Source: Candidatus Brachybacter algidus (GTDB taxonomy: Bacteria > Bacteroidota > Bacteroidia > Chitinophagales > Saprospiraceae). From it: a stretch of 64,000 nt of DNA. Shown here in pieces: positions 1 to 24,589 of the stretch. The notes beneath the pieces are model-generated. The model had not been told where the DNA came from. It saw nothing but the letters and a program-made list of their open reading frames with translations, and searched no databases. The stretch's first letter is position 1, and every line of letters begins with the position of its first letter. The position numbers and the translations under genes were made by a program. The stretch lies in contig JADJSK010000008.1 in NCBI GenBank assembly GCA_016711705.1, positions 3,803 to 67,802 of the forward strand. Direction: 5' to 3'.

Positions 1-480
1 AATAATCGCTGCTCTAAATGCTGTGAAGTTTCTTTATAATCTTCAAACTCTGCAAATTCTTTCTGTGCTAGCGGAAAAGATACAGAGTATTTTTTCTCCA
101 ACCAAGGGTTCTCCAAGATTATTAACCAAGTCGAACATGGATGAGCCTGTGGCTATTACTTTTATCCCTTCAATTGAATCAACGATCAGTTTGAGAATTA
201 AACCAATATCAGGAATATGTTGTGCCTCATCAATCACCAAGACATCTATACCTGAAAGTAATCGCTGGTAATTTGTGACCGATCGCTCCTTAAGTAAATC
301 TGAGTCCATGATGTCCTCACCATTGAGCTGTAAATATACATTTTGAGGATGCTCTTTAATAAAGTCTTTAATGAGCTTCGTTTTTCCAACTCGCCTTGCC
401 CCTAATAACAGTAGCACCTTTTCAGGAAGCAGTTTTTTACTGAATTCAGTGAAAAGTACCCTTTTAAAATAATTTGACAT
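1..480 (-). CDS. AAA+ ATPase (COG1373/DUF4143-type ATP-binding protein); 3' end runs off the window; frame broken once
   Basis: ORF 43..540 has Walker A GARRVGKT and Walker B VLVIDEAQ. The likely start is MSNYF at 478-480. After the T6 run at 90-95, the family-typical continuation KYSVSFPLAQKEFAEFEDYKE is in another frame and reads through to base 1. Confidence 0.6.
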
Positions 481-524
481 CCTTGGACTTACCTTTTGCA
501 CAGCAAAGATAGTGAAATAAACCT

Positions 525-605
525 TAATTGCGTCAACCAACTGACTGAATTTAGCTAAATTGCGTCAGTCAGTTGACTGAATTTAGCTAAATTGTGTCAA
601 TGGAT
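525..605. repeat. About 2.5 copies of a 32-bp direct repeat (tgactgaatttagctaaattgcgtca...) in the rfbA-ATPase spacer
   Basis: tgactgaatttagctaaattg is exact at 542-562 and 574-594. aattgYgtca recurs at 525-535, 557-567 and 589-599. Confidence 0.8.
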
Positions 606-607
606 AT

Positions 608-1465
608 TTATTTGATGCGCTTCAGATACACCCCGTACCCACTTTTTATATACAATTCTGCAAGTTCATTGAGTTGCTCCCTCGAGATAAACCCTTTTCT
701 AAAGGCGATCTCCTCGATGCAACCGATCTTATATCCCTGACGTTTTTCGATGACGCGGATGAATTCCGTTGCATCATGCAAAGAGTCGAAGGTGCCGGTA
801 TCCAGCCAGGCGGTGCCACGACCCAGGATAGCCACATTGAGATCTCCACGTTTCAGATATTCTCGATTGACATCCGTGATCTCGTATTCTCCACGGGGAG
901 AAGGAGCAAGGTCTCGTGCTATTTCCACAACAGAATTGTCATAGAAATAAAGTCCGGGAACAGCATAATTGGACTTTGGAGAATCAGGTTTTTCTTCTAT
1001 GCTGATGGCTTTTTTGTTCTCATCAAATTCCACCACACCATAACGTTCCGGATCTGACACCTCGTATGCAAATACATAACCACCTTCCACATTACTGAGC
1101 TTCTCTAATTGCTCTCCTAATCCCGCACCGTAAAAAATATTATCTCCCAGTACAAGGGCTACTTTATCATTGCCAATTAATTCTGCACCCAAGACAAATG
1201 CCTGAGCAAGTCCATTTGGCACTTCCTGAGCCACATATTCGAATCTGCAACCTATGTCAGAACCATCTCCAAGCAGCCTTTGAAACTGACTTTGATCTTC
1301 AGGAGTTGTGATGATCAGAATTTCCTTTATTCCTGCCATCATCAATACAGACAGGGGGTAGTAGATCATCGGTTTGTCATAGATCGGCATGAGTTGTTTG
1401 CTGATCGCTTTTGTGATGGGGTAGAGTCGTGTGCCGGATCCGCCGGCGAGGATTATTCCTTTCAT
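608..1465 (-). CDS. rfbA: Glucose-1-phosphate thymidylyltransferase
   Basis: 285 aa, [18 protein letters not shown]...; full-length RmlA-type sequence. Confidence 0.95.
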
Positions 1466-1477
1466 TTTTTTTAAGAG

Positions 1478-1631
1478 GTTAGAAAGTGAGAATGTGAGAA
1501 AGTGAGAAGGAGTCCACCCCCTTGGCCCCCTCCGAAGGGGGACATGTGGAGAGCCGCATGGTTTTGTTTATTATTCAATGTTTTAATATTAATGGAGTGA
1601 GAATGTGAGAAGGTGAGAAGGTGATGAGGAG
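1478..1631 (+). repeat. Arm-core-arm composite: GTGAGAAN octamer array (1478-1510), GC-hairpin element (1511-1545 plus conserved tail to about 1575), second octamer array (1594-1631)
   Basis: Read directly: gttagaaagtgagaatgtgagaaagtgagaagg / agtccacccccttggccccctccgaagggggacat... / ggagtgagaatgtgagaaggtgagaaggtgatgaggag. Confidence 0.9.
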
Positions 1632-1982
1632 TTAAACAAGTTTTTTTATTAATCCTGATAACATACTTTTGATATGATTCAATTTTCTGAACATCTCAGG
1701 ATCTTCTTTTATATATCCGATTCTATTTGATAAAATATATTGGGTTTCCAGTTCTGCGCAGGATCCAAGGGAATAAAAAAGAAACCTTTTAAATTCAGGA
1801 CCACTTTGCCTGGCTGCCCCTTCTGCTATATTAGACGGAATAGATATGGCGCATCTTCTCATTTGTGAGGAAAGTCCATATTTCTCATCTAAAGGTAAAC
1901 ATTTTGTGATTTCGTAAATGCTGGTAACTAAATCCATAGAAACTTGCCAGACCACGAGGTCTTTGTGGGATGAAATTTTCAT
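1632..1982 (-). CDS. Four-helix-bundle protein (TIGR02436, 23S rRNA intervening-sequence protein family)
   Basis: 116 aa with family hallmarks DLVVWQ, EKYGLSSQMRRCAISIPSNIAEG and GSCAELETQ. Confidence 0.9.
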   Translation of the reverse strand: MKISSHKDLVVWQVSMDLVTSIYEITKCLPLDEKYGLSSQMRRCAISIPSNIAEGAARQSGPEFKRFLFYSLGSCAELETQYILSNRIGYIKEDPEMFRKLNHIKSMLSGLIKKLV

Positions 1983-2066
1983 TTTAATTAAAATTTGGTG
2001 ATCAAAAACACTAAATTAAACATTATTCACCAAACCCTATAATAAATAACAAAAATATGCTTTTGA

Positions 2067-2106
2067 CCTCCCTTCTCACCTCCTCACTTCTTCACCTTCT
2101 CACCCC
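2067..2106 (-). repeat. Inverted copy of the GTGAGAAG array (reads cttctcac on the plus strand); partner arm of 1594-1631
   Basis: cctcccttctcacctcctcacttcttcaccttctcacccc. Its reverse complement aligns to 1594-1631 at about 28 of 38 positions (hand alignment). Confidence 0.85.
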
Positions 2107-2108
2107 TT

Positions 2109-3147
2109 CTATTCCAAATCTTCCAAACTTAATCTCTCCCCTTTTTCAATATTCCTCTTCACTTTCTTTCCCAACACTTCTTTAAAAAACTTCGGATGCA
2201 ATCCAAATCCCGGTCCTGATCGAACGGATATTCTTCTCAGTTAAAACTTCACCCTCAGCAATATTCTCTACTATATAAAGCGATCGACTAAAATCCTTCC
2301 CTTTTTTCTGCTTATCAGTCAGGTTATAATCAACTTTCCCTATTGCCTTTTCAGCTTCCCGGACTGCTTTTACCATCTCTGTGAATTCTGCTTCATTCAT
2401 GGAGAAGGATGAGTCAGGACCACCGATGGAACGGTCGAGGATGAAGTGCTTTTCAATTATTTTAGCTCCAAAACATGTAGCTACGACAGGTGCAGTGCTT
2501 CCGATGGTGTGATCCGACAATCCGACAATCATATTAAATCGTTCAGCGAAATCTTTTACCATGATCATATTTGCTTCTTCGATGGGAGCCGGGTAGGAAG
2601 ATGTGCATTTTAATAATGCGATATTTTCATTGCCCATGCGCTCACAAGCGTCGATGGCAAGTTCGATGTCTTCAAGTTCTGCGATGCCTGTGGAAATGAT
2701 GATGGGCTTTCCTTTGGATGCCACCAATTCTATCAATGGAATGTCTGTTATTTCAAAGGATGCTATTTTGTATGCCGGAACATTCAGACTTTCTAATAAT
2801 TCAACAGCTGTTGGGTCAAATGGCGATGAAAAACATTCTAATCCTTCTTCTCTTGCGACGGCGAACAATTGTTCGTGCCACTCCCACGGTGTAAATGCTT
2901 CCGAATACAAACTGTGTAAATTACGTCCTTCCCAGATGGTGCCTTTGATCAAAAAGTCATTCTTCTTTGAATCAATTGTGATGGTATCAGCTGTGTAAGT
3001 CTGAAATTTAATTGCGTCCGCACCGGCTCGTTTTGCGGCACGGATAGTTTCAATAGCTGTGTCCAGACTACCGTTGTGATTGGCGGATAGCTCAGCTATG
3101 ATGAAGACGGGGGAGGTGGAGGATATGGTGTAATTGCCTATTTGCAT
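2109..3147 (-). pseudogene. pseI: Pseudaminic acid synthase (NeuB/PseI family), one frameshift near the 3' end as sequenced
   Basis: ORF 2182..3147 has FIIAELSANHNG and the NeuB core. The SAF-domain tail SIRPGFGLHPKFFKEVLGKKVKRNIEKGERLSLEDLE is in another frame after about 2212-2217. The true stop is at 2109-2111. Confidence 0.85.
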
Positions 3148-3156
3148 TTTTATAAA

Positions 3157-3271
3157 GGTAGAAGTTAGAAGTTAGAAGGACGCTTTGGATGATATTTTAC
3201 TTTTTCTTAAAAGAGGATGCTTAAGGTTTAACAAAAGTTAGAAGGTGAGAATGTGAGAATGTGAGAAGGGG
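3157..3271 (+). repeat. Arm-core-arm composite with TTAGAAG/GTGAGAAT arrays (3157-3179 and 3236-3271) around a 56-nt core
   Basis: ggtagaagttagaagttagaagg ... agttagaaggtgagaatgtgagaatgtgagaagggg. Confidence 0.85.
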
Positions 3272-3528
3272 TCTTCGAAGTTTAATTTTTTGCTGAATGA
3301 AAAAGAAGATAAATCACAGAGGCAATTAGTTGCTATTATTTGCTGTTGTAATTGATATTCAGAATTTTAGAGAATTTAATGAAGATTTGAGATATATGAA
3401 TTCAATAATTATTTATATTAAAGATTCTACTTTGACTTAAATATTACACTACAAAATACAAGAGTTCACGGAGGGATTTTAATCTTTGATTAAAATTTTG
3501 CACAGATGAAACTGTTGTGCCTTGATTT

Positions 3529-3707
3529 GATTACCCATTACGCATTACCTATTTCCCATTATTTATCATTTATCATTTGAATTCATAATGTCACCACCTT
3601 CGGGGTTTTGGGATTTTCATGCATTTGATTTTCTATAAAAATGTCAACCTTTCAGGTTTTTTGCTTCATCATTACCCATTACTGATTACCCATTACTTAT
3701 AATCACC
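3529..3707 (+). repeat. Arm-core-arm composite with CATTACC heptamer arrays (3529-3579 and 3667-3707) around an 87-nt core
   Basis: gattacccattacgcattacctatttcccatt... and catcattacccattactgattacccattacttataatcacc. The right arm overlaps the last codons and stop of the pseG/H ORF. Confidence 0.85.
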
Positions 3708-5120
3708 ACATATCGATAATTATTCTCAACTTCAGTTCTTTCAAATCCCAGTTTTTCAAAGGAAGAGATGGAAGGAAGATTGCCTTTTGAAACAAAACCT
3801 TCGATCGTTAATGGTTTATGGTCCGGAGAAAGTATTTTTACAAATTCTTTACAACCTTTAGCGAGAATTGCCTGACCTAAACCCTTTCCATGAAATGCGG
3901 GATCCAGCAAATATGAAATAGTTGCAGTGTTTTCATTCATGTCAAATCGAATTGAACCGATTGGCTCATTATCCAACTTTGCAATGAAATAAACACAGTT
4001 TTGATCATTTATTTTCCTTGAAAACCAATTATTATGTTCCTCCAACAATATTGGATTTGTATTGAAGGACCACTTTCTTACTTCAGGGTCAGATGCCCAT
4101 TTGTAGGTAATTTCTGAGTCCTCAGGTTTAGCTCTGGTCAATTCGATTGATGCAATATTTTCCAGCAATTGAAAGCATTTATTTATGCGACTTTTTGATT
4201 TTCCATCAATTATTTCGGTAATATTAATATCTGAATTGAGGGCAATATTTACGGCATTTTCAATTGCTGTTTCAGAAAAATTATCGGCATCAATGAAGGC
4301 GTTTTGTGATAGAAAATTTTGATAAAAGTATTTTTGATTTTCAACAAAATATCCGGAAATTGGAATACAACCGGCTGCAAATACTTCCAATAAAATGGTG
4401 CTGCAGGGCACGATGGCGACATCAGAAGCCGACATTATTTCTGCCATTTGATATTCATCAATAGCATGTGATAATTTAATTTCTCTCATTTCCGACAAAC
4501 ACCTTTAATGATTCTGAATGCTTGTAGGCACTTCCTGTGACGACATTTATAGTTTTAAATGCCGAAAATTGAATTGCAATTTTTAAAGCTCTAAGAGTCA
4601 GATCTAATTGATCGCCTCCACCGAAACAAATAAAACAAGACTTAATAGAAGTAATTTTCCTTTTATTATTAGCTGCTTTTAAGAACGGTTCTCTAAGCAG
4701 AGCAAAGTTGGGTCCGAGTGCAAAATAATTAAATGGATCAGTTGAATAATCCGTGGAAGTTATTCCCGGAGCTTGATTTATGATGACATCAGAATGATAA
4801 TTTTTATCGTGCAGGTCATCGATGCAAACGATTTGAGAACCTTTCTCCCGCACTTTTTGGTACAGTTCTGAAGGAAAATGATGACCATCGATCACCACAA
4901 TTTTCTTTTCATCACACAGATCCAAAAATTCATTTTCTTTCTTAATTTGAATCAGTTTGTAATTATTTTTGGTCAGAATATACTCGAAATCACCGGTTAT
5001 TTCTCTACAAACGAATGTGATGTCATACTTGGAATCCAGCATTTGTACCATGGCCATACAGCGGTAGAGGTGGCCCATGCCGAGGGAGGTAGAGCCATCG
5101 GCGCGGAGGAGGATATTCAT
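3686..5120 (-). pseudogene. pseG: Fused PseG (UDP-2,4-diacetamido-2,4,6-trideoxy-beta-L-altropyranose hydrolase) and PseH-like GNAT acetyltransferase; one frameshift as sequenced
   Basis: The N-terminal part starts MNILLRADGSTSLGMGHLYRC (start 5118-5120; the 50 aa upstream in ORF 4476..5270 look spurious). The frame breaks at about 4489-4491 and continues as ...MREIKLSHAIDEYQMAEIMSASDVAIVPCST. The C-terminal GNAT domain has FHGKGLGQAIL. Confidence 0.75.
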
Positions 5121-5265
5121 GATATTATCTTTGATATTATTATGAACATGCCTACGACCTGAGATGATGAGGGAAATCCCAGGCCTACGACCTGGGTTAT
5201 GGGAAGTCGCCCTTTCAGGGCTAGTGGATAACCAAATATCATGAAATAAACTATTAAAATAACTA

Positions 5266-5310
5266 CTCATTACCCATTACCCATTACTCATTACCCATCT
5301 CCCATTTCAC
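5266..5310 (+). repeat. CATTACC heptamer array overlapping the pseF 3' end
   Basis: ctcattacccattacccattactcattacccatctcccatttcac. On the minus strand it encodes ...KWEMGNE and the stop. Confidence 0.85.
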
Positions 5311-5964
5311 CTCCGCCATCTTCCAGTCACTTTCATTGTCAATGTCCTGAACTTCCATTTCTGAAAGAATGATGACTTTAGAATTATCCGAGTACAAACT
5401 ATTACTAATTAATTCCGGTCGGAGCCAATACCACTGACCTGCATCGTGATAAGCCGCTGGTAGGTCCTGACTGCGGGTATGGCTGTATTCAGGCCAGTTC
5501 ATGGATACAAAATTATCTTCATCTACCTTTAAGGATCTAAGGATTGGAAATGAAAAAGGTACGACAGGAAATACACTTGCTATTTCATTTTCTAAAAGAT
5601 CTAAACCAGCTGTTAAATGCGATGATTTCATCAATGGAGCAGTGGGATAAATACAGCAAACTTCGTCGAATGTTCGATCTTCTTTTTTATAGGATTCCAG
5701 TACTTCTCTGATTACTTCAAGTGTCGTTGCTGTGTCGTTCGAAGTATTTTCTGACCTTAGGAACGGTACTTTAGCACCAAGTTCAAGGCTGATATTTTTT
5801 ATTTCTACATCATCTGTGGACACCATAACTTCATCAAATAAGCCACTTTTTAATGCGGCCTCGATCGAGTAAGCGATAATAGGTTTCCCGTGGAAATTTT
5901 TAATATTCTTTCTTGGAATTCTCTTACTTCCACCACGTGCCGGAATGATGGCCAGTCTAGCCAT
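5284..5964 (-). CDS. pseF: Pseudaminic acid cytidylyltransferase (CMP-sugar synthetase family)
   Basis: 226 aa, LAIIPARGGSKRIPRKNI motif, sits within the pse gene context. It is the only pse gene with an intact frame. Confidence 0.85.
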   Translation of the reverse strand: MARLAIIPARGGSKRIPRKNIKNFHGKPIIAYSIEAALKSGLFDEVMVSTDDVEIKNISLELGAKVPFLRSENTSNDTATTLEVIREVLESYKKEDRTFDEVCCIYPTAPLMKSSHLTAGLDLLENEIASVFPVVPFSFPILRSLKVDEDNFVSMNWPEYSHTRSQDLPAAYHDAGQWYWLRPELISNSLYSDNSKVIILSEMEVQDIDNESDWKMAEVKWEMGNE

Positions 5965-7139
5965 TATAGTAATTGTCGATGGTGTTGATGACGTATTGTT
6001 GTTCTTCTGAGGTCAATGTCGGAAACATAGGTAGACTAATGCAATGTCGGTAATATTGCTCTGAATGTGGCATATCTCCTTCCTTCCATCCAAATTGTTT
6101 GTAATAAGGCATCAAATGTGTAGGTATATAGTGGATCTGAGCAAAAATATTATGTTCCCTAAGATGTTTGTATAGACCTAATCTATTCTCTGCTTCAATC
6201 ACATACAAATGATAAGCATGACCTTCGATGACACCCGATTGACCTAGGATATATGTTTTTTCCTGAAATGCATTTTCATAAATTCTCGCTATTTCTCTTC
6301 TTCTTTTAATCCTTCTTCAGCTCGATTTAATTGGCTTAAGCCGAGGGCAGATTGAAATCTGTGATTCGATAATTGTATCCTAGTTGTTGCAATTCCATAT
6401 ACCATCCGGGTATTCATCGCCTCCACCACTGGCGAATTCCATAGAATTAGTATAATTATCATCTCCTTTAGTAATACCATGGGAGCGCAATCTATTTAAT
6501 TGCTTGTACAATTCTTCGTCATTGGTAGTGATCATCCCACCTTCCCCGCAAGCAATGTGTTTGACAGGGTGGAATGAAAATATGGCAAGTTCAGCAAATT
6601 TGCCATTTCCGCACCATTGTTCAACGCCATTTGTGTCTTTAAAATACCCTCCGGGAGCATGACAGGCATCTTCAATGATCCATAAACCGTATTCATCCGC
6701 TAATTTTCTAAATGCTTGCAAGTCCACTGCTCTTCCCGCAAAATCCACTGGAATAATTCTTTTGTAGTTCCCCTCATGGTCATTTTCTAATATCTTTCTT
6801 ACAGAATTAATATCAAGCAAATAAGTTTCAGGATCTATATCTCCAAAAACAACTTCTCCACCACAATATCTAACGCAATTAGCAGAAGCAGAAAAGGTAA
6901 TCGGAGTAGTTATTACCTTGTCTCCCGGTTTTACATCCAGCGACATTGTACAAAGATGCAGTGCGGCAGTGCCATTAGAAACTGCTACGCGTATTTGCTA
7001 CCTATGTATTTAGCAAAGCATTTTCAAACTCACCGATTTTAGGGCCTTGAGTCAGGTAGTCTGATTTCAGCGATTCTGTTACAGCTGCGATGTCGTCATC
7101 TGTTATATTTTGGCGTCCGTATGGAATGGGGTTTCTCAT
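5957..7139 (-). pseudogene. pseC: UDP-4-amino-4,6-dideoxy-N-acetyl-beta-L-altrosamine transaminase (DegT/DnrJ/EryC1 family), at least 5 frameshifts as sequenced
   Basis: The conserved protein is recoverable only by frame hopping: MRNPIPYGRQNITDDDI...GEFENA | FAKYIGSKYA | VAVSNGTAALHLCTMSLDVKPGDKV...GGGDEYP | GWYMELQQLGYNYRITDF | QSALGLSQLNRAEEGLK | RRREIARIYENAFQEK...YVIEAENR...DNYYNG. Breaks are near 7015, 6989, 6408, 6354 and 6305. Confidence 0.85.
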
Positions 7140-7168
7140 GTGAGTGTTGTGCTAATTATTTTTTTAGA

Positions 7169-7321
7169 AGTCCACCCCCTTGGCCCCCTCCGAAGGGGGA
7201 CATTCGTGTGGCCTCATGTTTGTTGTTATTAGTGAAAGTTGTACTAATAAGGATGGTTATATTTTTGTAATAAATATGATCGTATGATGTCCCCCCTTTG
7301 GAGGGGGCTAGGAGGTGGACT
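7169..7321. repeat. Two inverted copies of the GC-hairpin element (7169-7203 and 7287-7321), separated by 83 nt
   Basis: agtccacccccttggccccctccgaagggggacat versus atgtcccccctttggagggggctaggaggtggact (near reverse complements). Confidence 0.9.
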
Positions 7322-7386
7322 CGTTTGCACCTTCAAAGTTATTCAACATTTAGGTGGACCAACCAATTTACTATCCAATACTTCGC

Positions 7387-8397
<1,011 letters not shown>

Positions 8398-8415
8398 GGT
8401 TGTTTGTTTTTTGAT

Positions 8416-8471
8416 GGTCCACCCCCTTGGCCCCCTCCAAAGGGGGATATGCGTTTGGCCTCATATTTAAG
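8416..8471 (+). repeat. GC-hairpin element copy with conserved tail
   Basis: ggtccacccccttggccccctccaaagggggatatgcgtttggcctcatatttaag. It lies 18 nt from the pseB ATG. Confidence 0.9.
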
Positions 8472-8528
8472 TTTAATTTGAGAAACTTTTGCTCTTTGGT
8501 GTATTTTTCATTTTCATTCTTCATTAAT

Positions 8529-9581
8529 TTACCCGTACATCTCTTCATAATACTTCCTATAATCACCACTTGTCACGTGTTCCAGCCATTCGGAGTTAGA
8601 AAGGTACCAATCGATTGTTTTTTCTAGTCCTTCTTCGAAAGTGACGGATGGATACCAACCAAGTTCTTTGTTTATTTTGGAGGCATCGATGGCATAACGT
8701 CGGTCGTGGCCCGGACGGTCTTTGATGTAAGTAATTAACTGCTCTGATTCTCCCTGAGTTCTGTCTAGTTTCCGGTCCATGATGGAGCATAGTAACTTGA
8801 CGAGGTCGATATTTTTCCATTCGTTGAATCCACCGATATTGTAGGTTTCACCGATTTTTCCATTGTGAAACGCTGCGTCTATGGCTGTGCCGTGGTCTAT
8901 AACGTACAACCAGTCGCGAGTGTACAAACCATCTCCATACACCGGTAGGGATTTTTTTTGAATGATATTATTAATAAATAAAGGAATTAACTTTTCCGGA
9001 AAATGAAAAGGACCGTAATTGTTTGAACAATTAGAGATCATGACCGGCATGCCGTATGTGTCACCAAAAGCGCGGACCATATGATCCGAAGATGCTTTGC
9101 TGGCACTGTATGGTGAATGGGGATCGTACTTGGTTTCTTCAGTAAAGAAGCCAGTTTCTCCTAAAGCGCCATAAACTTCATCAGTGGAAACGTGGTAAAA
9201 TAAATGACCATCCTTTTCATTATCCCAATGTTCGCGGGCAGCCTGAAGCAGGTTTGCTGTTCCCATGACATTCGTTTCGATGAATACAAATGGATTTTCT
9301 ATCGATCGGTCTACATGACTTTCTGCTGCAAGATGAATGACATGGGTGATGTTATATTCTTTGAAAACATATCTCAAGGTCCCGAGGTCACAAATATCTC
9401 CTTTAATAAAGCGATAATTACCAGCGGCTTCGATGTCTTTGACATTTTCAAGATTACCTGCGTAGGTCAACAGATCGAAATTGAAAATATTATATTCCGG
9501 ATATTTATTGACAAATAGCCTGGCTACGTGTGAACCTATGAAGCCAGCTGCACCGGTGATAAGAATGTTTTTAGAACTCAT
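8529..9581 (-). CDS. rfbB: dTDP-glucose 4,6-dehydratase
   Basis: 350 aa, ILITGAAGFIGSH..., YSASKASSDH catalytic motif, RmlB-like throughout. Confidence 0.95.
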   Translation of the reverse strand: MSSKNILITGAAGFIGSHVARLFVNKYPEYNIFNFDLLTYAGNLENVKDIEAAGNYRFIKGDICDLGTLRYVFKEYNITHVIHLAAESHVDRSIENPFVFIETNVMGTANLLQAAREHWDNEKDGHLFYHVSTDEVYGALGETGFFTEETKYDPHSPYSASKASSDHMVRAFGDTYGMPVMISNCSNNYGPFHFPEKLIPLFINNIIQKKSLPVYGDGLYTRDWLYVIDHGTAIDAAFHNGKIGETYNIGGFNEWKNIDLVKLLCSIMDRKLDRTQGESEQLITYIKDRPGHDRRYAIDASKINKELGWYPSVTFEEGLEKTIDWYLSNSEWLEHVTSGDYRKYYEEMYG

Positions 9582-9585
9582 TAAA

Positions 9586-10554
9586 TTATTTTGATATTGA
9601 ATTTTTATACCAATCGAAGGATTTTTTCAAACCTTCCTTAACTTTTATTTTTGGGTCATAATTGAGCAGTGTTTTGGCTTTTGAAATATCTGCTAAACTT
9701 GCTCTAACGTCACCTTGTCTCGAACTTCGATAATTTGCATTAAGTTCAGAATTGCCAATTAATTTTAATTCATTCCACATTTCATTGATGGTAATACTAT
9801 CTCCAAGAGCGACATTATAAACCTGATTAAATGCTTCTTCATTTTCTGTAAATAAGGCCAATAGATTGATTTGAACTACGTTTTCGATAAATGTAAAATC
9901 TCTGCTTTGTTCACCATCTCCGTTGATAAATGGGGCATCATTGTCCAAAATAGCCTTGTTGAAAAGCGGAATTACTGCTGCGTATTGACCATTCGGATCT
10001 TGTCGTGGGCCGAACACATTAAAATATCTCAATCCGATAAATTCCAAGCCATATAAATCACCAAATACTTTTGCGTACAATTCATTGACATATTTTGTAA
10101 CCGCATAAGGTGAAAGCGGCAAGCCAATATTGTTTTCTACTTTAGGTAAATTTGGACTATCTCCATAAGTGGAAGATGATGCTGCATAGACAACTCTTGA
10201 AATGCCTGCATTTTTAGCTGCAGTGAAAATATTTAACGTCCCTGAAATATTTACATCATTGGTGGTTAACGGATCTTCAATGCTACGAGGCACGGATCCC
10301 AATGCTGCCTGGTGACAAACAATAGCAATGTCTTCCATTGCTTTCGTACAATCTTCAAAATTTCTGATATCACCTTGCTGGAATTGGAAATTTTCGTTTG
10401 AAAGATTGTGATTTATGTTTTGCATTTTGCCGGTAGCTAAATTATCCAGGACGCGCACAAATCCAATATCAGGCAATGCCAAAAGTGCATCAGCTATGTG
10501 CGAACCTATGAATCCTGCTCCACCGGTGATCAGTATATTTTGCTTCTTCATCAT
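9586..10554 (-). CDS. NAD-dependent sugar-nucleotide 4-epimerase (WbpP/TviC-like)
   Basis: 322 aa, [24 protein letters not shown] (YxxxK). The stop of the upstream dehydrogenase overlaps its start. Confidence 0.8.
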
Positions 10555-11828
10555 AATCGTTGGTCGACCCTACCTAATGGAAAAAAGCCTTTTACATCAT
10601 AAATAACGCTATCCTTTTTACAGATGGTATCTAAGTTGATTTCTCTAAATTCATTATGAGCGACAGCTAACACTACGGCATCATACCTCATGGATTCATC
10701 TAATGATTTTATACTTCTCCATCCATATTCATGGTGCATTTCATCAGGATTCACCCAAGGGTCCATTACTGTCACATTCGTATGATAAGTTGCAAGACAA
10801 TTTAAAATATCCACCACTCTGGTATTTCTGACATCTGGGCAATTTTCTTTGAAAGTAGCACCTAAAACCAGAATGTTTGAATTTTTAATATTGATATCTT
10901 TTTTTATCATCAATTTGATCACTTCTTCAGCAATATATTCACCCATGCTGTCATTTAAGCGACGCCCGGCAAGAATCATTTCGGGATGATATCCAACTTC
11001 TTGTGCTTTTTGTGCAAGATAATAAGGGTCTACTCCAATGCAATGACCTCCAACTAATCCTGGTTTAAAATTTAAGAAATTCCATTTGGTACCTGCTGCT
11101 TCCAGCACCTGAGTGGTATCCAAATCCAACCTGTTAAATATCTTTGATAGCTCATTGACAAAGGCAATGTTGATATCCCGCTGGGTATTTTCGATTACTT
11201 TGGCAGCTTCCGCAACTTTAATTGAGGCGGCTTTGTAAATTCCGGCAATAATTACTTGACCATATAAATCAGCAATTTTTTCGGTTATTTCCGCAGTGGA
11301 ACCTGAAACGATTTTCAGGATCTTTGTCACAGTGTGCTCTTTGTCACCGGGGTTTATTCTTTCAGGCGAATATCCGGCATGAAAATCGGTATTATATGTT
11401 AGACCAGATATTTTTTCCAATACAGGAATACAAATTTCTTCTGTTGCACCCGGATATACAGTCGATTCGTAAACTACTATTGCCCCTTGTCTCATGACTT
11501 TTCCGACAGTTTCACTTGCCTTAATTAAAGGGGTAAAATCAGGTTTATTATTTTTATCTACTGGAGTGGGAACTGTTACGATATAATAATCAAAGCTCTC
11601 AATATCTTTCAAAACCGAAGTTAAGGAAAGTCCAGTATTGCCTGTAGAATTAAGCACTGAATTTAAATTCTCAGAATCAATCTCTAAAGTTTTATCCAGA
11701 CCTGAATTTAATTCACTAAGTCTGGTTTGATTAATATCAAATCCGACGACTTTGAATTTTTTTGCAAATTCAACTGCGAGAGGAAGACCTACATATCCGA
11801 GGCCAATGATGGCTATTTTTTTACTCAA
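10551..11828 (-). CDS. Nucleotide-sugar dehydrogenase (UDP-N-acetyl-hexosamine dehydrogenase, WbpO/TviB-like)
   Basis: 425 aa, [14 protein letters not shown] Rossmann N-terminus, [11 protein letters not shown] catalytic Cys region. Confidence 0.85.
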
Positions 11829-11834
11829 TTACTT

Positions 11835-12302
11835 TTAGTTCTTTTTAGTTAATTGTTCTATATCATTCAAATCTTTGTGTCTGGCTGAAGATTTTTTAGC
11901 AGTAATTAATTGATTCAAATGAATGACATTAATAATTAAATCTTCTTCGACTTGGTATCTGACTTTATTATTAAAGACTTCCTCAAATTCTACTCCTTTC
12001 ATTTTTGTCATTATATCAATGGAGACCGGTGGTCGACCAAATTCAAAAACATCGAATTCTTTTATATTTAAAAATCGTTCCAATGTCATACTAAACAAGG
12101 ACATTCCAAATTCATCAAAGGCATGAATTATTTTGGAATAATTTTCACTAGTTGGATTTACAAATAGATCCATGTCTCCGGTAGTACGCTGATAACCATG
12201 AATTATAACAGAATATCCACCTACAAGAACATATTCAACACCTGCCCTTTCAAATGAAGATAAAAAATCATTAAAGTCAGAATTGAATATATTGTTTGTC
12301 AT
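11835..12302 (-). CDS. Minimal nucleotidyltransferase-fold protein (pol-beta superfamily, MNT/DUF6036-like)
   Basis: 155 aa, LVGGYSVIIHGYQRTTGDMDLFV, which fits the G[GS]...DxD NTase motif. Its ATG overlaps the stop of the upstream small ORF (ATGA at 12299-12302). Confidence 0.6.
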   Translation of the reverse strand: MTNNIFNSDFNDFLSSFERAGVEYVLVGGYSVIIHGYQRTTGDMDLFVNPTSENYSKIIHAFDEFGMSLFSMTLERFLNIKEFDVFEFGRPPVSIDIMTKMKGVEFEEVFNNKVRYQVEEDLIINVIHLNQLITAKKSSARHKDLNDIEQLTKKN

Positions 12303-12508
12303 TGACTTTTCCTCATATTGAAATGAGTTTTATCCATTATCCTTTTATTCGAATAAGGAATACCATAAGCTGAACATGTAAGCTGCCATGAAGCGGACAA
12401 TCGTTCTTTTACTGAACGGCTCAACCAATATTCAATATTATTTCCCTTTTCTTCAAAGGAAACAATGCGCATGGCAGTTCGGTCGAGTTTAATTTGGTTT
12501 TCTTTCAC
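12299..12508 (-). CDS. Small hypothetical protein, translationally coupled partner of the NTase
   Basis: 69 aa. Its GTG start overlaps the ugd stop (GTGA at 12505-12508). No recognisable domain. Confidence 0.45.
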   Translation of the reverse strand: MKENQIKLDRTAMRIVSFEEKGNNIEYWLSRSVKERLSASWQLTCSAYGIPYSNKRIMDKTHFNMRKSQ

Positions 12509-13809
12509 GGCCTCCCTATCGATTCAAAATAAAATCCATTTTGTTGCATCGTGGCCGGATCGAAGATATTTCTACCATCGAAGATTGCTTTGTCGATCAA
12601 TTTACTTTTAATAAAGTTGAAGTCAGGTGAACGGAATTCATTCCATTCAGTGAGTATCATCAGCGCATTTGCATTATTTAAAACCTCATATTGGTCATTC
12701 GCGAAGGCTATTTTATCACCATATAATTTTTCCACATTTTCCATTGCTTCCGGATCGAATGCCTGGACAATAGCTCCTGCTTTTAATAATTTTTCAATGA
12801 TGTATAATGCCGGAGCTTCACGGATATCGTCTGTATTTGGTTTGAATGCTAGACCCCAAAGAGCAATGGTTTTACCTTTCAGGTCACCTTTATAATAATT
12901 TCTGATCTTGTCGAATAGGACGGTTCTTTGTTTTTCATTGACCTTGATCACAGAATCCAGAATGCTGAACTCGTATTCGTTCTGGTCAGCTATTTTTGCC
13001 AAAGCTTTGACATCCTTCGGGAAACAAGACCCTCCATAACCAATGCCGGGAAATAAAAACCTTTTTCCAATTCTCGTATCAGAACCCATGCCTAGACGCA
13101 CCATGTCTACATTAGCACCTACTTTTTCACATAGATTTGCGATCTCATTCATGAAAGTGATCTTGGTAGCAAGAAATGAATTCGCAGCGTATTTGGTCAA
13201 CTCTGCAGAACGTTCATCCATGAAGTAAATCGGATTTCCTTGTTTGACGAAGGGTTCATAAAGGGTGCGCATCACTTCTCTGGCTCTCTCAGAATTAGTA
13301 CCGATTACGACTCTATCAGGCTTCATAAAATCTTCCACAGCAACTCCTTCTCTTAGAAATTCCGGATTGGAAACCACATCAAACAAATCTTCCGAAATAT
13401 TCTTTGCAATGGCATTATGAACCATTTCTGCTGTTCCTACAGGAACTGTGCTTTTATCGATAATGATTTTATATTTTTTTATCAAATTGCCCAACTTATT
13501 CGCTACATCGATAATGTAAGATAGGTCGGCAGAACCATCTTCTCCTTCCGGAGTAGGTAATGCAAGGAAAATAATATCACCAAAATCCACTGCTTTTGCA
13601 AGATCAGTGGTAAATTCCAGTCTTTTCTTTTCGATATTTCTGTGAAAAATTACTTCAAGTCCAGGTTCGTAAATAGTAATTTTACCTGCGCTAAGACTTT
13701 TGACTTTTTCCTCATTTATGTCCACACACATGACATGATTGCCTGTCTCAGAGAAACATGTTCCTGTGACGAGTCCAACGTAGCCGGTGCCGATAACTGT
13801 GATGTTCAA
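12505..13809 (-). CDS. ugd: UDP-glucose 6-dehydrogenase
   Basis: 434 aa, NITVIGTGYVGLVTG, GGSCFPKDV active-site motif. The apparent TTG start (13807-13809) lies inside a repeat arm. Confidence 0.93.
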   Translation of the reverse strand: MNITVIGTGYVGLVTGTCFSETGNHVMCVDINEEKVKSLSAGKITIYEPGLEVIFHRNIEKKRLEFTTDLAKAVDFGDIIFLALPTPEGEDGSADLSYIIDVANKLGNLIKKYKIIIDKSTVPVGTAEMVHNAIAKNISEDLFDVVSNPEFLREGVAVEDFMKPDRVVIGTNSERAREVMRTLYEPFVKQGNPIYFMDERSAELTKYAANSFLATKITFMNEIANLCEKVGANVDMVRLGMGSDTRIGKRFLFPGIGYGGSCFPKDVKALAKIADQNEYEFSILDSVIKVNEKQRTVLFDKIRNYYKGDLKGKTIALWGLAFKPNTDDIREAPALYIIEKLLKAGAIVQAFDPEAMENVEKLYGDKIAFANDQYEVLNNANALMILTEWNEFRSPDFNFIKSKLIDKAIFDGRNIFDPATMQQNGFYFESIGRP

Positions 13810-13990
13810 TTGTTAATTATTAGTTGTTAATTGTTATTCTACCCCGATGTGAAGGGACTGTAAAATGTTTGATTTGAGCAAGGAGGTTCAATTGTTAATT
13901 ATTAGTTGTTAATTGTTATACTACTTTGATTTGAAGGATCTATTAAACGGTTATTTTGTGCGAAGTTGGATAATTGTTAATTATTATTTG
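13805..13990 (+). repeat. About 2.3 tandem copies of an 82-bp unit (33-nt TTGTTAAT-type arm plus about 50-nt core)
   Basis: ttcaattgttaattattagttgttaattgttat is exact at 13805-13837 and 13887-13919. A partial arm ataattgttaattattatttgg lies at 13968-13990. Confidence 0.95.
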
Positions 13991-14358
13991 GGTGTGGGAT
14001 TCCTATTTTGCTTTGCTTTCGATGTTTTTATGATACTGGTTAGCATTTTTATTAGCTCGATGCTAATTGAATTTAGTCTTTCGAATTTATCTTTTGAAAT
14101 AAGATTCGAACCATTTAAAAGCTCTAACCAATATATTGTTTCATTGCTTTCTTTTTGAGCAATTGACAATTTATGAATAAAATCCTTTCCACTTTCGGCA
14201 TGTTGTGCTTCTCTATATAATGCACCGATCGCTGTTCCTGAGCGTAAGAGTTGATTTGATAAAACAAATTCTTTCTTTGTTGTTTGTAAATCTCTGCATA
14301 ATTCAACAACATCAAGGGCAAACTGAAAACTTTTGGTTTTAAAGTGATTCTCTGTCAT
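13984..14358 (-). CDS. Four-helix-bundle protein (TIGR02436 family, second subtype)
   Basis: 124 aa with LLRSGTAIGALYREAQHAES, FIHKLSIAQKESNETIYWLELL. Confidence 0.88.
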   Translation of the reverse strand: MTENHFKTKSFQFALDVVELCRDLQTTKKEFVLSNQLLRSGTAIGALYREAQHAESGKDFIHKLSIAQKESNETIYWLELLNGSNLISKDKFERLNSISIELIKMLTSIIKTSKAKQNRNPTPK

Positions 14359-14408
14359 AATTCCGGGTGAATTTATCTATTTTTATATATTCTTCAATCT
14401 GTGCAAAA

Positions 14409-14441
14409 ATAACAATTAACAACTAATAACTAACAATTACC
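14409..14441 (-). repeat. Inverted copy of the 33-nt arm; closes a stem around the four-helix-bundle ORF
   Basis: ataacaattaacaactaataactaacaattacc is the reverse complement of the 13887-13919 arm at 29 of 33 positions. Confidence 0.95.
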
Positions 14442-14545
14442 GCATGGCTTCGCCGTCAATAAGTCGCACTTATAGCCCTAAAATAAATCACTAAAATATT
14501 GATTATGTTATACTTAAAAATTTAAATAAACATAATATAAAATAA

Positions 14546-15058
14546 TTAAACGGTGGATGGTTCGAGTTGTTTTTTATTGATTTCTATTTGTAAAGCAATA
14601 CCAAGTGAGTCAAAATTGACAACTAATTTGCCTTTGGATTTTATTTGTGAAATGATGCCTTTCATGCCGAATAGCGGACCATTGGAGACTTTTACAGATT
14701 GGCCGAGACCATATTCTACCTCTGTTAAGATCAGATCTTCTTCAATTCCCTCAATTCTCCTTAGTATCTCTATCTCTCTATCCTGAACCGGTCTCAATTG
14801 AGGGCCGGTTTTGACAAAATTGTACACATATTCCGTTTCAAGAACTTTGATATAATCCTGAGCTGGTATCTGTACAAATAAGTAACATGGTAATATTGGA
14901 ACTGTGTGATGCACTATTTTCCTTTGGTAGCGCTTTGTATAATTGCGCATTGGAGCATACGAAATCACTCCTTTTTTATCAAGTTGTTGGAGTACAATTT
15001 TTTCACTTTTGTACTTCACCTTAATAGCATACCAAGCATTTTCACTTATATCCTGCAT
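14546..15058 (-). CDS. UpxY-family (NusG-like) transcription antiterminator
   Basis: 170 aa, WYAIKVKYKSEKIV NGN start and a KOW-like GQSVKVSNGPLFGMKGII. It sits at the head of the polysaccharide locus. Confidence 0.85.
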   Translation of the reverse strand: MQDISENAWYAIKVKYKSEKIVLQQLDKKGVISYAPMRNYTKRYQRKIVHHTVPILPCYLFVQIPAQDYIKVLETEYVYNFVKTGPQLRPVQDREIEILRRIEGIEEDLILTEVEYGLGQSVKVSNGPLFGMKGIISQIKSKGKLVVNFDSLGIALQIEINKKQLEPSTV

Positions 15059-15061
15059 CGA

Positions 15062-15598
15062 TTATATTTTTGATGACCATAGCAACAATGGCTCCTGACC
15101 TTTTACTGTCAATGCATATTGTCCATATTCTGAATTACTGAAAATTACATAGCGGATCTTACGTTTAATCACCACTTCCGCTTTTGATACCAATGTAGAA
15201 AGATACTCTCTGTCGATATCCCCAAGTATAATAAGGTCAACTATAGGCGAATCAACACCTGTAGCAAAGGCTCCTGTAAGATACACATGATCAACATTGC
15301 CTAATCTTTCTATCACATCATTGATGATCTGATCGATGCCGATATGCTTTAAAAGGATATTGTGAATCTCGCGGAAAAGTGGATGGGACGTATTTGCAGA
15401 GAAGATCTTTTTATTCCCATTGGGGATAGAATTGATTAATCCGGCCTTTTCAAACTTGTTTAATTCCAGTCTTATGGCATTGGTGGACTCACCCATCTCG
15501 CTCTCCAGACTACGAAGATACGCTGTCGCTCCCTTGTTCAAGAAGAACTTGAAAAGTAACTTGACTCTAGTCTTTGAGGATATTAATGTTTCTATCAT
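15062..15598 (-). CDS. Winged-helix (ArsR-like) transcriptional regulator with a C-terminal nucleotidyltransferase-like domain
   Basis: The N-terminus SKTRVKLLFKFFLN...AYLRSLESEMGESTNAIRLELNKFEKAGLI is wHTH-like. The C-terminus has YLTGAFATGVDSPIVDLIILGD. The likely start is MIETL (15596-15598). Confidence 0.6.
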   Translation of the reverse strand: MIETLISSKTRVKLLFKFFLNKGATAYLRSLESEMGESTNAIRLELNKFEKAGLINSIPNGNKKIFSANTSHPLFREIHNILLKHIGIDQIINDVIERLGNVDHVYLTGAFATGVDSPIVDLIILGDIDREYLSTLVSKAEVVIKRKIRYVIFSNSEYGQYALTVKGQEPLLLWSSKI

Positions 15599-15733
15599 AT
15601 CAAAAATGAGTAGCAAAACTACTCATTTTTAATTATTTGTGAAGCAAAATAGTGTTAAAAATCCCATGAATACTAAATATACAGAAAAACTACCAGTAGT
15701 TTTCTAACATAAATACGGTTTGGGTTTTTACAC

Positions 15734-15765
15734 AAAAGAAAAAAGGGCCGAAAATTCAGCCCTTT
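15734..15765 (-). terminator. Rho-independent terminator after the 15773-16401 gene
   Basis: On the minus strand, aagggc-N10-gccctt is followed by ttttttcttttg. Confidence 0.6.
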
Positions 15766-15772
15766 AAATTAT

Positions 15773-16401
15773 CTATTGACAATTGGCCAAACCTTCCTGA
15801 GCCTGATCAAGCCCCCATGTTGGGCTGAGGTCACTTGCAGGCTTAAATGCTTCAAACATTCTTACTGATTTTTCAAATATAGGTTTTGCAACAGCTTTGC
15901 CACCCCCAAATTGCTCCGGAGTATAAAATGTAGTTTGTGCTTCCAGCATATACGGCCTTGGATTGGTCGGATCCAGCTTCTTAGCTTTATCAAGTGCACT
16001 ACTGGCCTCCATACCATAAGTCTGCCATCTGGCCATGGGATCGACTGACATAGCCATCACAGCGGACATTTGCTTTAAGCAATATATCTCAGAATTATCC
16101 TTACTAAGTGCATCAGCCTGAGCAATCAATTCATTTGTTTTGGCAGAAACTTTATCTTTATCTGCTGTTTCATCCATCCATCCCGCAAGGTTATTTGTGA
16201 GCGCAGCGTAGTAATAAGGTAACCAATTTGTTTTTTCGAATTTGCAATTCTTTCAAAATATGCTGAAGCCGAACTCATTTCATTTGATGTCTTAGCATCT
16301 TTAATTTGCTGAAGTCCCGCAGCCATTGCTTTCTCATAACCGGATTGTGCAAACAAACCTGTCGAAAGTAATAGAACACATAATAGAAGTAAATTTTTCA
16401 T
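15773..16401 (-). CDS. Secreted hypothetical protein (signal peptide, helical/TPR-like); one frameshift as sequenced
   Basis: ORFs 16126..16401 and 15773..16177 join as ...FERIANSKK | TNWLPYYYAALTNNLAGWMDETADKD... across the T6 run at 16231-16236. Confidence 0.6.
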
Positions 16402-16440
16402 TTGTTAAAATTTATTGATAAAATGATTTTGTGAAAAAGT

Positions 16441-18681: not shown

Positions 18682-18720
18682 TTCTTCAATTATTTACAAG
18701 TAGTCGTAGTATAATCTTTG

Positions 18721-19422: not shown

Positions 19423-19517
19423 TGAACAATATATTTTAGAAATTAAATTTATTAATAACTCGCTAAAAGGTCAAAGCTCTAATCCAGATTTACGACAAAT
19501 CCCTTTATTCAAGTTCC

Positions 19518-23049: not shown

Positions 23050-23333
23050 TTGGAGGTGAGAGGGTTATGAGATTAGGAGAGGGGTGGAGAATTGAAAATT
23101 GAAAATTGAAAATTGAAAATGGGGCGAATAGTGGGAAGGATATATCTAATTTGACTTTTGGCTTGTAGTTAAAAGCTTATGGCTTTAATTCCTCTGAAGC
23201 AATTTGCATGTAGAAATCAGTGCAATCAAAGAAATCAATTTAATCAGTGGTTCAGACAAATTAATGATGGTTATTGGCAGGAAAGGGAAAGTTGAAAATG
23301 AGGAAGGAAAAATGAGCAATGGAAAATTACGGC
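23050..23333 (+). repeat. Composite: G/A-rich degenerate array, TTGAAAA heptamer array (23086-23124), core, degenerate GAAAAT array (23281-23333)
   Basis: ggagaattgaaaattgaaaattgaaaattgaaaatgggg, followed by the gcgaatagtgggaagga and aaagcttatggct modules. Confidence 0.85.
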
Positions 23334-24540: not shown

Positions 24541-24589
24541 GGTCAATGTCATTAAGTTAAGCAATTGAAATCAATAATATTTTACAGAC

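Follow-up and report, generated by a model that had tools for sequence, protein, structure and literature searches.

Which kind of element is a small four-helix-bundle gene that sits between two polysaccharide genes and is framed by inverted arrays of an octamer? The question is raised by a stretch of 64,000 nucleotides (nt) from Candidatus Brachybacter algidus (Saprospiraceae; contig JADJSK010000008.1, positions 3,803 to 67,802 of the forward strand), which is denoted below as the window and numbered from its first letter. Positions 1-20,000 of the window are occupied by a polysaccharide-biosynthesis operon on the minus strand. Within it, an open reading frame (ORF) of 116 aa at 1632-1982 lies between pseI and rfbA, preceded by an inverted array at 2067-2106 (5' arm, CCTCCCTTCTCACCTCCTCACTTCTTCACCTTCTCACCCC) and followed by arrays at 1594-1631 (proximal 3' arm, GGAGTGAGAATGTGAGAAGGTGAGAAGGTGATGAGGAG) and 1478-1510 (distal 3' arm, GTTAGAAAGTGAGAATGTGAGAAAGTGAGAAGG), all on the minus strand. 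These coordinates had been proposed in a first-pass annotation of the sequence and were all confirmed. The explanation that fits the locus best, and which is given about an even chance, is that of a selfish cassette of the type known as intervening sequences (IVSs) of 23S ribosomal RNA (rRNA), residing here in an mRNA operon; by analogy with the rRNA elements and from modelled folds, its arms may form an RNase III processing stem that insulates the host genes. The cassette is assigned to an mRNA operon because an Rfam search of window positions 1-16000 yielded no rRNA match and the flanking genes are pseI and rfbA, but protein family and stem architecture are shared with the IVSs. This link to the 23S rRNA elements was absent from the first-pass annotation.

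The encoded protein belongs to the S23p family (PF05635 23S_rRNA_IVP / TIGR02436). It matches PF05635 over the full profile (positions 1-106 of 106, E 4.4e-36) and TIGR02436, named 'four helix bundle protein' in NCBIfam, with 119.9 bits against a cut-off of 24; the nearest solved structure is the pentameric Xcc0516 (PDB 2GSC, E 1.8e-26). With QMRRCAISIPSNIAEG it carries the GxxRxxxSxxxNxxE motif described for this family (PMC3936711), and across 26 homologues no variation is seen at R43 and E54 and hardly any at S47 and N51. An identical protein is annotated as 'four helix bundle protein [Saprospiraceae bacterium]', and the protein of this species is present in 197 blocks of the assembly index that was searched. 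Comparison with the 91%-identical orthologue at locus L012 gives a ratio of nonsynonymous to synonymous substitutions (dN/dS) of 0.07 at a dS of 0.73, and the ORF is under strong purifying selection.

In the minus-strand RNA, the 5' arm reads as a purine-rich array of about five octamer units (GGGGUGAGAAGGUGAAGAAGUGAGGAGGUGAGAAGGGAGG), and the proximal 3' arm, which abuts the stop codon of the ORF (1632-1634), as a pyrimidine-rich one. The octamer GTGAGAANGTGAGAA occurs 18 times in the window with at most two mismatches, against 0.64 occurrences expected from shuffled sequences. In their best ungapped register, the 5' arm and the proximal 3' arm form 28 Watson-Crick and 4 G:U pairs over 38 positions, exactly as counted by hand in the first-pass annotation, and the distal 3' arm offers 26 Watson-Crick and 4 G:U pairs over its 33 positions. 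The arm duplex is calculated at -52.3 kcal/mol, compared with -33.3 +/- 4.4 kcal/mol for a shuffled arm; the predicted stems of the cassette range from -44 to -52 kcal/mol, and the fold of the whole cassette RNA has a z-score of -5.9. A partition function over positions 1440-3300 of the minus strand (1.86 kb) assigns the 5' arm 31 expected pairs with the proximal 3' arm, 2 with the distal one, and 0.4 with an array of the same unit upstream of pseI. The favoured stem is therefore predicted to enclose the four-helix-bundle gene and not pseI. If 1466-2111 is folded alone, the minimum-free-energy partner of the 5' arm is the distal 3' arm. In silico, the 38-nt arms thus provide what is regarded as the terminal inverted repeat of an IVS, a duplex of at least 20 bp enclosing an ORF.

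Between the 5' arm and the start codon lies an AT-rich leader of 84 nt (1983-2066, minus strand). A hairpin is predicted between UUUGGUGA (2034-2027) and UCACCAAA (2001-1994). The motif AUCACCAAA (2002-1994), located 11 nt before the AUG, is common to the window and the related loci L012, L011, and L015; in all four, the leader measures 72-85 nt and ATCACCAAA immediately precedes the ATG. A search of the leader for a promoter returned one TAnnTTTG-like match in the window, which is not conserved in L012, and scans for sigma-70 promoters and terminators remained at background level.

The bracketing by inverted arrays is a property of the gene family. With a profile built from the 26 homologues, 80 loci were retrieved from contigs representing one genome per species and covering Bacteroidota, Planctomycetota, Clostridia, Cloacimonadota, Ignavibacteriota, Nitrospirota, the candidate phyla radiation (CPR), Proteobacteria, and others; cultured carriers in this census include Flavobacterium pectinovorum (L092), Pedobacter ureilyticus (L058), Sphingobacterium alkalisoli (L019), and Chryseobacterium sp. 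(L042). For each gene, 300 nt of upstream sequence were compared with 200 nt of downstream sequence and their local complementarity was scored, with a cut-off of at least 24. The four-helix-bundle genes (n=80) reach a median score of 36, and 75% pass the cut-off, compared with a median of 18 and 11% for the other ORFs of the same loci (n=298; Mann-Whitney p 1.6e-21); some of the high-scoring controls are neighbours that share an arm with the four-helix-bundle gene. RNA duplex energies over the whole 200-nt flanks had been tried as a metric and were rejected, as they produced whole-length pseudo-duplexes with uninformative z-scores; the local score with controls took their place. Tandem arrays (period 5-11, at least 2.5 copies) are present on both sides of 49 of 81 four-helix-bundle genes and of 11 of 157 control genes situated more than 700 nt from any such gene. 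Of 120 flanks, 84 have a period of 7 and 26 a period of 8. At 64 loci the inverted score is higher than the direct one, and at 16 it is lower (Wilcoxon p 5e-7, n=80).

What recurs is the arrangement and not the unit, which changes at almost every locus (e.g. GCGACGGA/CTCCGTCG, TAGTGGT/CCACTAA, GATGAACA/CTGTTCAT, TTTCGGT/CCGAAAA, TCGTATG/CGACATA, and AAGGGAC/TTGTCCC); arm units are held in common only by proteins that are at least about 70% identical. A number of 5' arm units open with GTGA (GTGAGAA, GTGATGA, GTGAATT, GTGACAA, GTGAAAA, and others), namely in the window and in L016, L020, L023, L033, L035, L038, L052, L060, L062, L063, L086, L087, and L093; this recurrence could reflect shared descent within a subfamily or a sequence preference.

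The cassettes are also oriented with respect to their hosts. In 58 of 72 loci, both neighbours share the strand of the four-helix-bundle gene; the spacers have medians of 74 and 57 nt, and the arms are confined to these untranslated spacers; in organisms using Shine-Dalgarno sequences, that of the downstream gene is found just outside the 3' arm. An inverton (invertible segment) was considered and rejected, since at most loci by far the gene runs in the same direction as its neighbours. The arms themselves have a polarity: in 44 of 48 loci, G outnumbers C in the 5' arm (p 1.5e-9), and the 3' arm is C-rich. Reading the other strand leaves this polarity unchanged, so that it represents an intrinsic handedness of the element. 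A G-rich-first order never leaves a C-rich, G-poor stretch unpaired during transcription and may in this way avoid Rho loading.

More distant relatives of the window protein are informative about the arms. The orthologue at L012 is likewise located upstream of rfbA, behind a different upstream gene, and is flanked by a 5' array of GGTGAGAA that extends over about 200 nt, compared with 40 nt in the window, and by a 3' array of CCCTCTAA/CCTTCTAA. (At 1-11, the L012 contig opens with TCTTCCGATCT, which is left over from an Illumina adapter in a public metagenome assembly.) The relatives at L011 and L015 are 72-73% identical to the window protein. In L011 the gene order is HipA, four-helix-bundle gene, low-molecular-weight phosphatase (LMWPc), with GTTAGAAG-type arms; in L015, which also precedes an LMWPc phosphatase, GGTGATAA is found on the 5' side and TTATCAC on the 3' side. 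Both arms have changed together, from GTGAGAA/TTCTCAC in the window to GTGATAA/TTATCAC in L015, and the units GTGAGAA, GTGATAA, and GTTAGAA are spread over close paralogues at different host genes (rfbA and LMWPc).

The site upstream of rfbA has been occupied more than once. The linkage of a four-helix-bundle gene to a following rfbA recurs in L012, L022, L029, L100, L107, L156, and L158. Of 80 metagenomic rfbA loci with an RfbA that is 70-80% identical to that of the window, only five carry a four-helix-bundle gene directly upstream, one of them as a decayed fragment, and the site is filled patchily across genera by unrelated four-helix-bundle lineages. The rfbA-linked proteins are only 31-56% identical to each other, and the closest relatives of the window protein, orthologues aside, are found upstream of another host gene; the rfbA site was therefore occupied independently. 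The decayed fragment, at 2070-2294 of L137, is a truncated, frame-broken remnant with vestigial arms and represents cassette decay. Inverted heptamer hairpins devoid of an ORF are found just upstream of rfbA as well, built from GTTGACG/CCGTCAA (L169, 2322-2444) and GCCCAAA/TTTGGGC (L149, 2294-2466). These two loci share the same gene order (phosphate transporter, then rfbA) with unrelated units, and the G/C polarity of L149 is opposite to that of the cassettes.

From these data, the following course of events can be proposed. The unit would consist of the 5' arm, the leader of about 84 nt, the 116-aa four-helix-bundle (S23p/Avd-like) gene, and the 3' arm, placed between the stop of pseI and the start of rfbA and presumably transcribed with both. 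In the polycistronic RNA, the G-rich 5' arm would zip with the C-rich 3' arm over about 33-38 bp and loop out the four-helix-bundle message; as both arms are composed of tandem 8-nt units, pairing would be possible in several registers. Judged from the rRNA versions, the arm duplex would be a substrate of RNase III, and the cut would free the cassette RNA, with pseI and rfbA remaining as separate messages. Since cleavage would separate the messages, the insertion could be tolerated inside an essential transcription unit. The arms would spread with the gene and turn over rapidly by repeat slippage while retaining their complementarity. The anatomy, the family-wide association with inverted tandem arrays, the co-orientation with neighbouring genes, the purifying selection on the ORF, and the independent occupation of one host site by unrelated lineages are shown by the data, whereas pairing in RNA, cutting by RNase III, and the role of the protein are inferred.

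Several observations weigh against this proposal. No arms can be detected in about one homologue in four. An unbiased 375-kb sample of rfbA loci contains 21 inverted pairs of same-unit arrays, of which only two enclose a four-helix-bundle gene, the loops of most measuring 25-130 nt; as most of these pairs have no ORF in the loop, the arrays exist independently of the gene. The first-pass annotation had named as a refuting result a complementarity no better than that of any two unlinked arrays of the unit, and such a result was obtained: the 5' arm pairs equally well with unlinked same-unit arrays, i.e. 44138-44176 (-54.1 kcal/mol) and the solo array of unit GTGAGAAN upstream of pseI (3237-3270, minus strand; -46.2 kcal/mol), and with random synthetic arrays of the observed unit variants (-49.7 +/- 5.5 kcal/mol). 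By this criterion there is no special co-adaptation of the two arms; the non-random feature is the presence of the same unit on both sides in opposite orientation. In both cassettes of the window, the only inverted copy of the unit lies exactly 5' of the four-helix-bundle gene. Arm mismatches at 49 loci, counted on the sense strand, comprise 62 of the G:U type and 93 of the A:C type. Such a lack of G:U excess is unlike the usual strongly selected RNA helix and leaves room for maintenance at the DNA level; among the data on the cassettes themselves, it speaks most strongly against an explanation at the RNA level alone. Presence/absence polymorphism among relatives had been put forward as a sign of mobility, and none was found, nor any copy-number polymorphism, among ten same-species contigs that encode the identical protein. 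These contigs are 99% identical across the cassette, including an identical 5' arm, and therefore provide no covariation signal. Furthermore, processing of members outside rRNA is argued by analogy, and the Coxiella ORF, which is decaying and apparently untranslated (PMC4990558), differs in this respect from the window ORF with its signature of strong purifying selection.

The main rival places the origin or maintenance of the arms at the DNA level and is considered rather unlikely, although it is compatible with RNA processing and the two are not mutually exclusive. A non-autonomous mobile cassette would then have the arms as its terminal inverted repeats, or the arms would be the halves of a hairpin target into whose loop the gene was inserted, the RNA stem being a by-product. 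This would agree with the rfbA-upstream sites, filled at only 5 of 76 related loci, and their unrelated lineages, the decayed copy in L137, the arm units common to close paralogues at different host sites, the ORF-less array hairpins of L149 and L169 at the same kind of site, and the absence of G:U enrichment; the position of rRNA IVSs at helix tips, also discussed in print (PMC4990558), would fit loop-targeted insertion too. It is countered by the composition of the locus, as no transposase, recombinase, or reverse transcriptase gene was found in the cassette or adjoining it. The arms vary in sequence from locus to locus, so that they could not be recognised by a sequence-specific enzyme. Outside the arms, no target-site duplication can be seen, a short ACTCC duplication belonging to an inserted core described below, so that the features of a transposon or miniature inverted-repeat transposable element are lacking. 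A close-range pair of filled and empty sites is likewise missing, the ten same-species contigs being identical, and the co-orientation bias and the exact confinement to spacers point to a constraint on the transcript.

Judged improbable is a reading in which an oligomeric protein binds to the units and thereby controls how the cassette and the downstream gene are translated or how stable they are, inversion being secondary. The pentameric four-helix-bundle protein itself or a host RNA-binding protein of the cold-shock or S1-domain type would be the candidate binder. Avd relatives bind nucleic acid. The period of 7-8 nt is regular, with typically three to five units, GTGA recurs in many 5' arm units, and only a few nt separate the ends of 3' arms and solo arrays from start codons; the family is homopentameric (Xcc0516, 2GSC; PMC4990558), and for TAACTGA heptamers of the same placement a post-transcriptional regulator has been proposed (MacGregor 2015, PMC4679880). 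Yet the units vary from AT-rich (TGTTAAT) to GC-rich (GCGACGGA), while the most conserved surface motif of the protein, SIPSNIAEG, is invariant; the opposite array being the reverse complement at 64 of 80 loci is left unexplained, and most arrays of the window are far from any four-helix-bundle gene. That the arrays are generic intergenic filler of a repeat-rich genome, without function and bracketing the gene by coincidence, might be suspected from the 31 short-period tandem arrays in the 64-kb window, six of them near a four-helix-bundle gene, from same-unit arrays at 3237-3270 and 44140-44321 that accompany no such gene, and from arms that pair no better than unlinked arrays. This is very improbable, as it is largely refuted by the census complementarity (75% vs 11% in same-locus controls), the both-side arrays (60% vs 7%), and the orientation bias; the association also holds in phyla where arrays are otherwise rare, and the placement of the only inverted copy of the unit in both window cassettes speaks against it as well. 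Marginally less credible still is a contingency locus, in which hypermutable simple-sequence repeats would phase-vary the polysaccharide genes. The operon is a capsule/O-antigen-type locus whose downstream part varies between strains, the 5' array differs in length between the window and L012, and work on Haemophilus links phase variation to heptanucleotide repeats combined with RNase III (PMC12721329). Against it, all three arrays have equal lengths in eleven same-species sequences, which differ by two substitutions only, whereas variable copy number among close strains would be expected of a contingency locus; and the same architecture is found beside housekeeping genes in many phyla.

The closest known counterparts of the proposed IVS-type cassette are the ORF-bearing elements of rRNA. 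In Leptospira, 23S rRNA IVSs containing an S23p-type ORF were reportedly described by Ralph and McClelland in 1993. Another example is the 428-nt IVS in helix 45 of the 23S rRNA of Coxiella burnetii, whose terminal inverted repeats pair into a 28-bp stem that is cut by RNase III (Warrier et al. 2016, PMC4990558). It contains three tandem heptamers (GACAGAT), variable in copy number and adjoining the S23p start codon, and for its origin transposon-remnant and mobile-element hypotheses are listed by the authors as unresolved (PMC4990558). The window cassette shares with these elements the ORF family PF05635, the position of the ORF in the loop of a long terminal-inverted-repeat stem, tandem repeats in the 5' arm region near the start codon with a copy number that differs between relatives, and its embedding in, and transcription with, a host unit; rRNA IVSs, like the array hairpins, exist with and without the gene. 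It differs in that the host is a spacer of a protein-coding operon and not helix 25 or 45, in that its arms consist entirely of tandem octamers, and in that RNase III cleavage is demonstrated in Coxiella and inferred here.

Short tandem arrays in operon spacers have also been described from other bacteria. The short tandemly repeated repetitive (STRR) elements of filamentous cyanobacteria are 7-bp tandem repeats which form hairpins in operon spacers such as hupS-hupL, and roles in transcript stability or translational coupling have been proposed for them (PMC2670836). Both they and the window arrays are hairpin-capable arrays of this location, and Nostocales dominate the plasmid matches of the four-helix-bundle family. 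STRRs comprise a few specific cyanobacterial heptamers, whereas the units considered here are locus-specific, an octamer (GTGAGAAN) in a Saprospiraceae host; the resemblance is one of form only, and the window cassette is no STRR. An STRR inside a structural RNA gene is said to have been described by Vioque in 1997. TAACTGA heptamers occur as direct repeats in Beggiatoaceae, Cyanobacteria, and some Bacteroidetes and end just upstream of start codons (MacGregor 2015, PMC4679880). Comparably, 3' arms and solo arrays of the window end a few nt upstream of the rfbA, pseI, and ugd starts; the patchy, horizontal-looking distribution of TAACTGA repeats includes Bacteroidetes (PMC4679880), and window positions 43928-43990 hold a TCAGTTA/TCAGTGG array, the reverse complement of the TAACTGA type. 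These repeats differ in having a single conserved unit in direct orientation, with one inverted case in 170, in lacking an association with an enclosed ORF, and in being read as protein-binding sites (PMC4679880).

Two further systems share one feature each with the cassette. Avd of diversity-generating retroelements (bAvd, PF22296) has a homologous pentameric four-helix-bundle fold, and many close homologues of the window ORF match PF22296. The window cassette, flanked by pseI and rfbA, has no reverse transcriptase, template, or variable repeat nearby, and no reverse-transcriptase domain was found among the genes called within +/-10 kb in ten orthologous loci, so that it does not qualify as such a retroelement. 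RNase III also processes intercistronic hairpins of the phage T7 early mRNA and of the rpsO-pnp type. The proposed action is the same, a long intercistronic duplex being cut to separate messages; those stems are short, local, and without cargo, unlike the tandem-repeat stem and the loop of 435 nt with an expressed gene in the window. The presence of PF05635 genes in cas loci has been reported, repeats not being commented on (PMC3936711). In the papers that could be searched, which exclude most subscription journals, PF05635 genes outside rRNA are not linked with flanking inverted tandem arrays, nor STRRs with PF05635 genes; this absence is weak evidence.

Four-helix-bundle genes are also carried by plasmids. 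In Nostoc sp. PCC 7120, plasmids alpha (L176, 698-1100) and gamma (L177, 704-1100) encode the same four-helix-bundle protein (WP_010994075.1). On gamma, an annotated ISL3-family transposase gene precedes it at a distance of about 80 nt; on alpha, the sequence upstream resembles the end of a comparable gene, but the annotation lists none there. Each copy is accompanied only by a CTCTGCC heptamer array on its 3' side. This suggests that the four-helix-bundle gene can travel as a passenger of an insertion sequence as well.

The two 3' arms of the window cassette are separated by a core of about 85 nt (1511-1593, minus strand; GTCCACCCCCTTGGCCCCCTCCGAAGGGGGACAT...) with ACTCC on both sides. The first-pass annotation had regarded a GC hairpin as an element of this core and of the cassette. 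The hairpin is real and is located at 1511-1550; it proved to be an independent dispersed repeat, with further copies at 7169-7203, 7287-7321 (inverted), and 8417-8450. The repeat thus occurs in four operon spacers, with the sequence pattern GTCCACCCCCTTGGCCCCCTCCRAAGGGGGACAT followed by GTGG.GCC.CATGTTT, and one copy gives a weak, sub-threshold match to Rfam whalefall-1 (24 bits, E 0.015). In L012, L011, and L015 the core is absent and the 3' arm single, that of L012 reaching to the rfbA ATG. The core is not part of the conserved cassette. The simplest reading of the sequences is that one 3' array was later split by insertion of the core, flanked by the ACTCC duplication, and that the distal 3' arm is probably the other half of that array. 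The claim that an order of inverted arm, ORF, arm, core, and arm is conserved in place of a specific sequence thus stood with regard to the inverted bracketing, borne out by the census scores, the orientation bias, and the varying unit, and failed with regard to the 'arm, core, arm' portion.

The same operon harbors a sister cassette at 13805-14438 (minus strand), between a NusG/UpxY-like gene and ugd. It consists of an inverted 5' arm at 14409-14438 (30 nt, 97% complementary), an ORF matching PF05635 at 13984-14358, and TGTTAAT-type 3' arms at 13890-13919 and 13805-13836; its complementarity score is 57 and its fold z-score -4.0. Its own 'arm, core, arm' portion is an 82-nt tandem duplication with an unrelated core. 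As the first-pass annotation had stated, both four-helix-bundle genes of the window are bracketed by inverted arrays of unrelated units, and their proteins are only 20% identical to each other. The adjoining NusG/UpxY-like antiterminator gene is located at 14546-15058; the site is the leader of the polysaccharide operon. In Bacteroides, antitermination of the UpxY type acts at polysaccharide operon leaders.

Regarding the neighbours of the cassette, the gene directly downstream and co-oriented is rfbA (608-1465, minus strand; glucose-1-phosphate thymidylyltransferase, PF00483, E 7e-74). Its AUG begins at 1465, and the distal 3' arm stops 12 nt short of it. Between rfbA and an AAA_14 ATPase gene (516-600), a 32-nt unit, AATTGCGTCAACCAACTGACTGAATTTAGCTA, is present in 2.3 copies and is also palindromic. 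Directly upstream, and co-oriented as well, lies the pseI/neuB-type synthase gene (2109-3147, minus strand; PF03102). The 5' arm had been described as starting 2 nt from the pseI stop, and this is correct: although the reading frame in the window is broken at about 2182, the true stop codon, TAG, can be placed at 2109-2111 because ten near-identical relatives have an intact NeuB of 345 aa, which ends 126 nt before the four-helix-bundle ATG. Three genes that are intact in near-identical relatives are frameshifted in the window, encoding the 345-aa NeuB, a 395-aa aminotransferase, and a 337-aa epimerase/dehydratase (2182-2230, 5964-7140, and 7677-8380); these frameshifts are probably indel errors of a long-read assembly rather than marks of pseudogenes.

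Across the window, solo arrays of many 7-8-nt units are found at very high density, e.g. at 5264-5306, 23090-23120, 24331-24360, 24879-24958, 30181-30255, and 62288-62384, among them GTAATGG in 14 and CACCCGAT in 10 copies, and several abut start or stop codons. Neither extra nor decayed four-helix-bundle genes were found near the other GTGAGAAG arrays of the window, and ORF-less array hairpins, which do occur at other loci, are absent from it. An intergenic block of 500 nt (43916-44410) combines TCAGTGG/TCAGTTA and GGAAAAT arrays with about three copies of a unit of ~115 nt, GTTTCCACAGCAGAGCTATCAGCCAATAGCCAATGGCCGGCAGCTTTAGTGAGAGGTGAGAAGG..., which has a GTGAGAAG array at its own end. Nested inverted repeats on GGTGCGCTGCACCT form a cluster at 24535-24787, within the 1-kb spacer that separates a universal stress protein gene from rnpA, and this cluster is bracketed by GGCTGAT and CACCCGAT arrays. 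At 5178-5222, in the spacer adjoining the TACCCAT array, a match to the Rfam Acido-Lenti-1 RNA stays below threshold (29.8 bits, the gathering score being 37; E 0.002).

To our knowledge, ORF-bearing IVSs of 23S rRNA, known since 1993, have remained without an explanation of their origin, mobility, and protein role, and the heptamer arrays (STRR, TAACTGA), known since 1990, have formed a second puzzle of their own. Should this one ORF family bring the same stem-forming arms to every place where it is located, the two puzzles may be one phenomenon; between ordinary genes, such arms were found at 60-75% of 80 loci in many phyla. Tentatively, and with less confidence than is placed in the reading of the window cassette itself, PF05635 genes with inverted arms might represent widespread, unrecognised intervening cassettes in operon spacers and rRNA helices of most bacterial phyla, tolerated through RNase III excision, of which the STRRs and the arrays of Beggiatoaceae and Bacteroidota, including solo arrays and ORF-less hairpins, would be footprints or non-autonomous derivatives. 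Bracketing by inverted arms provides a simple sequence signature for finding such cassettes, which may otherwise be mistaken in annotation for repeats resembling clustered regularly interspaced short palindromic repeats (CRISPR) or for other repeats. Located inside capsule/O-antigen operons and directly upstream of start codons, they may affect the expression of surface-polysaccharide genes.

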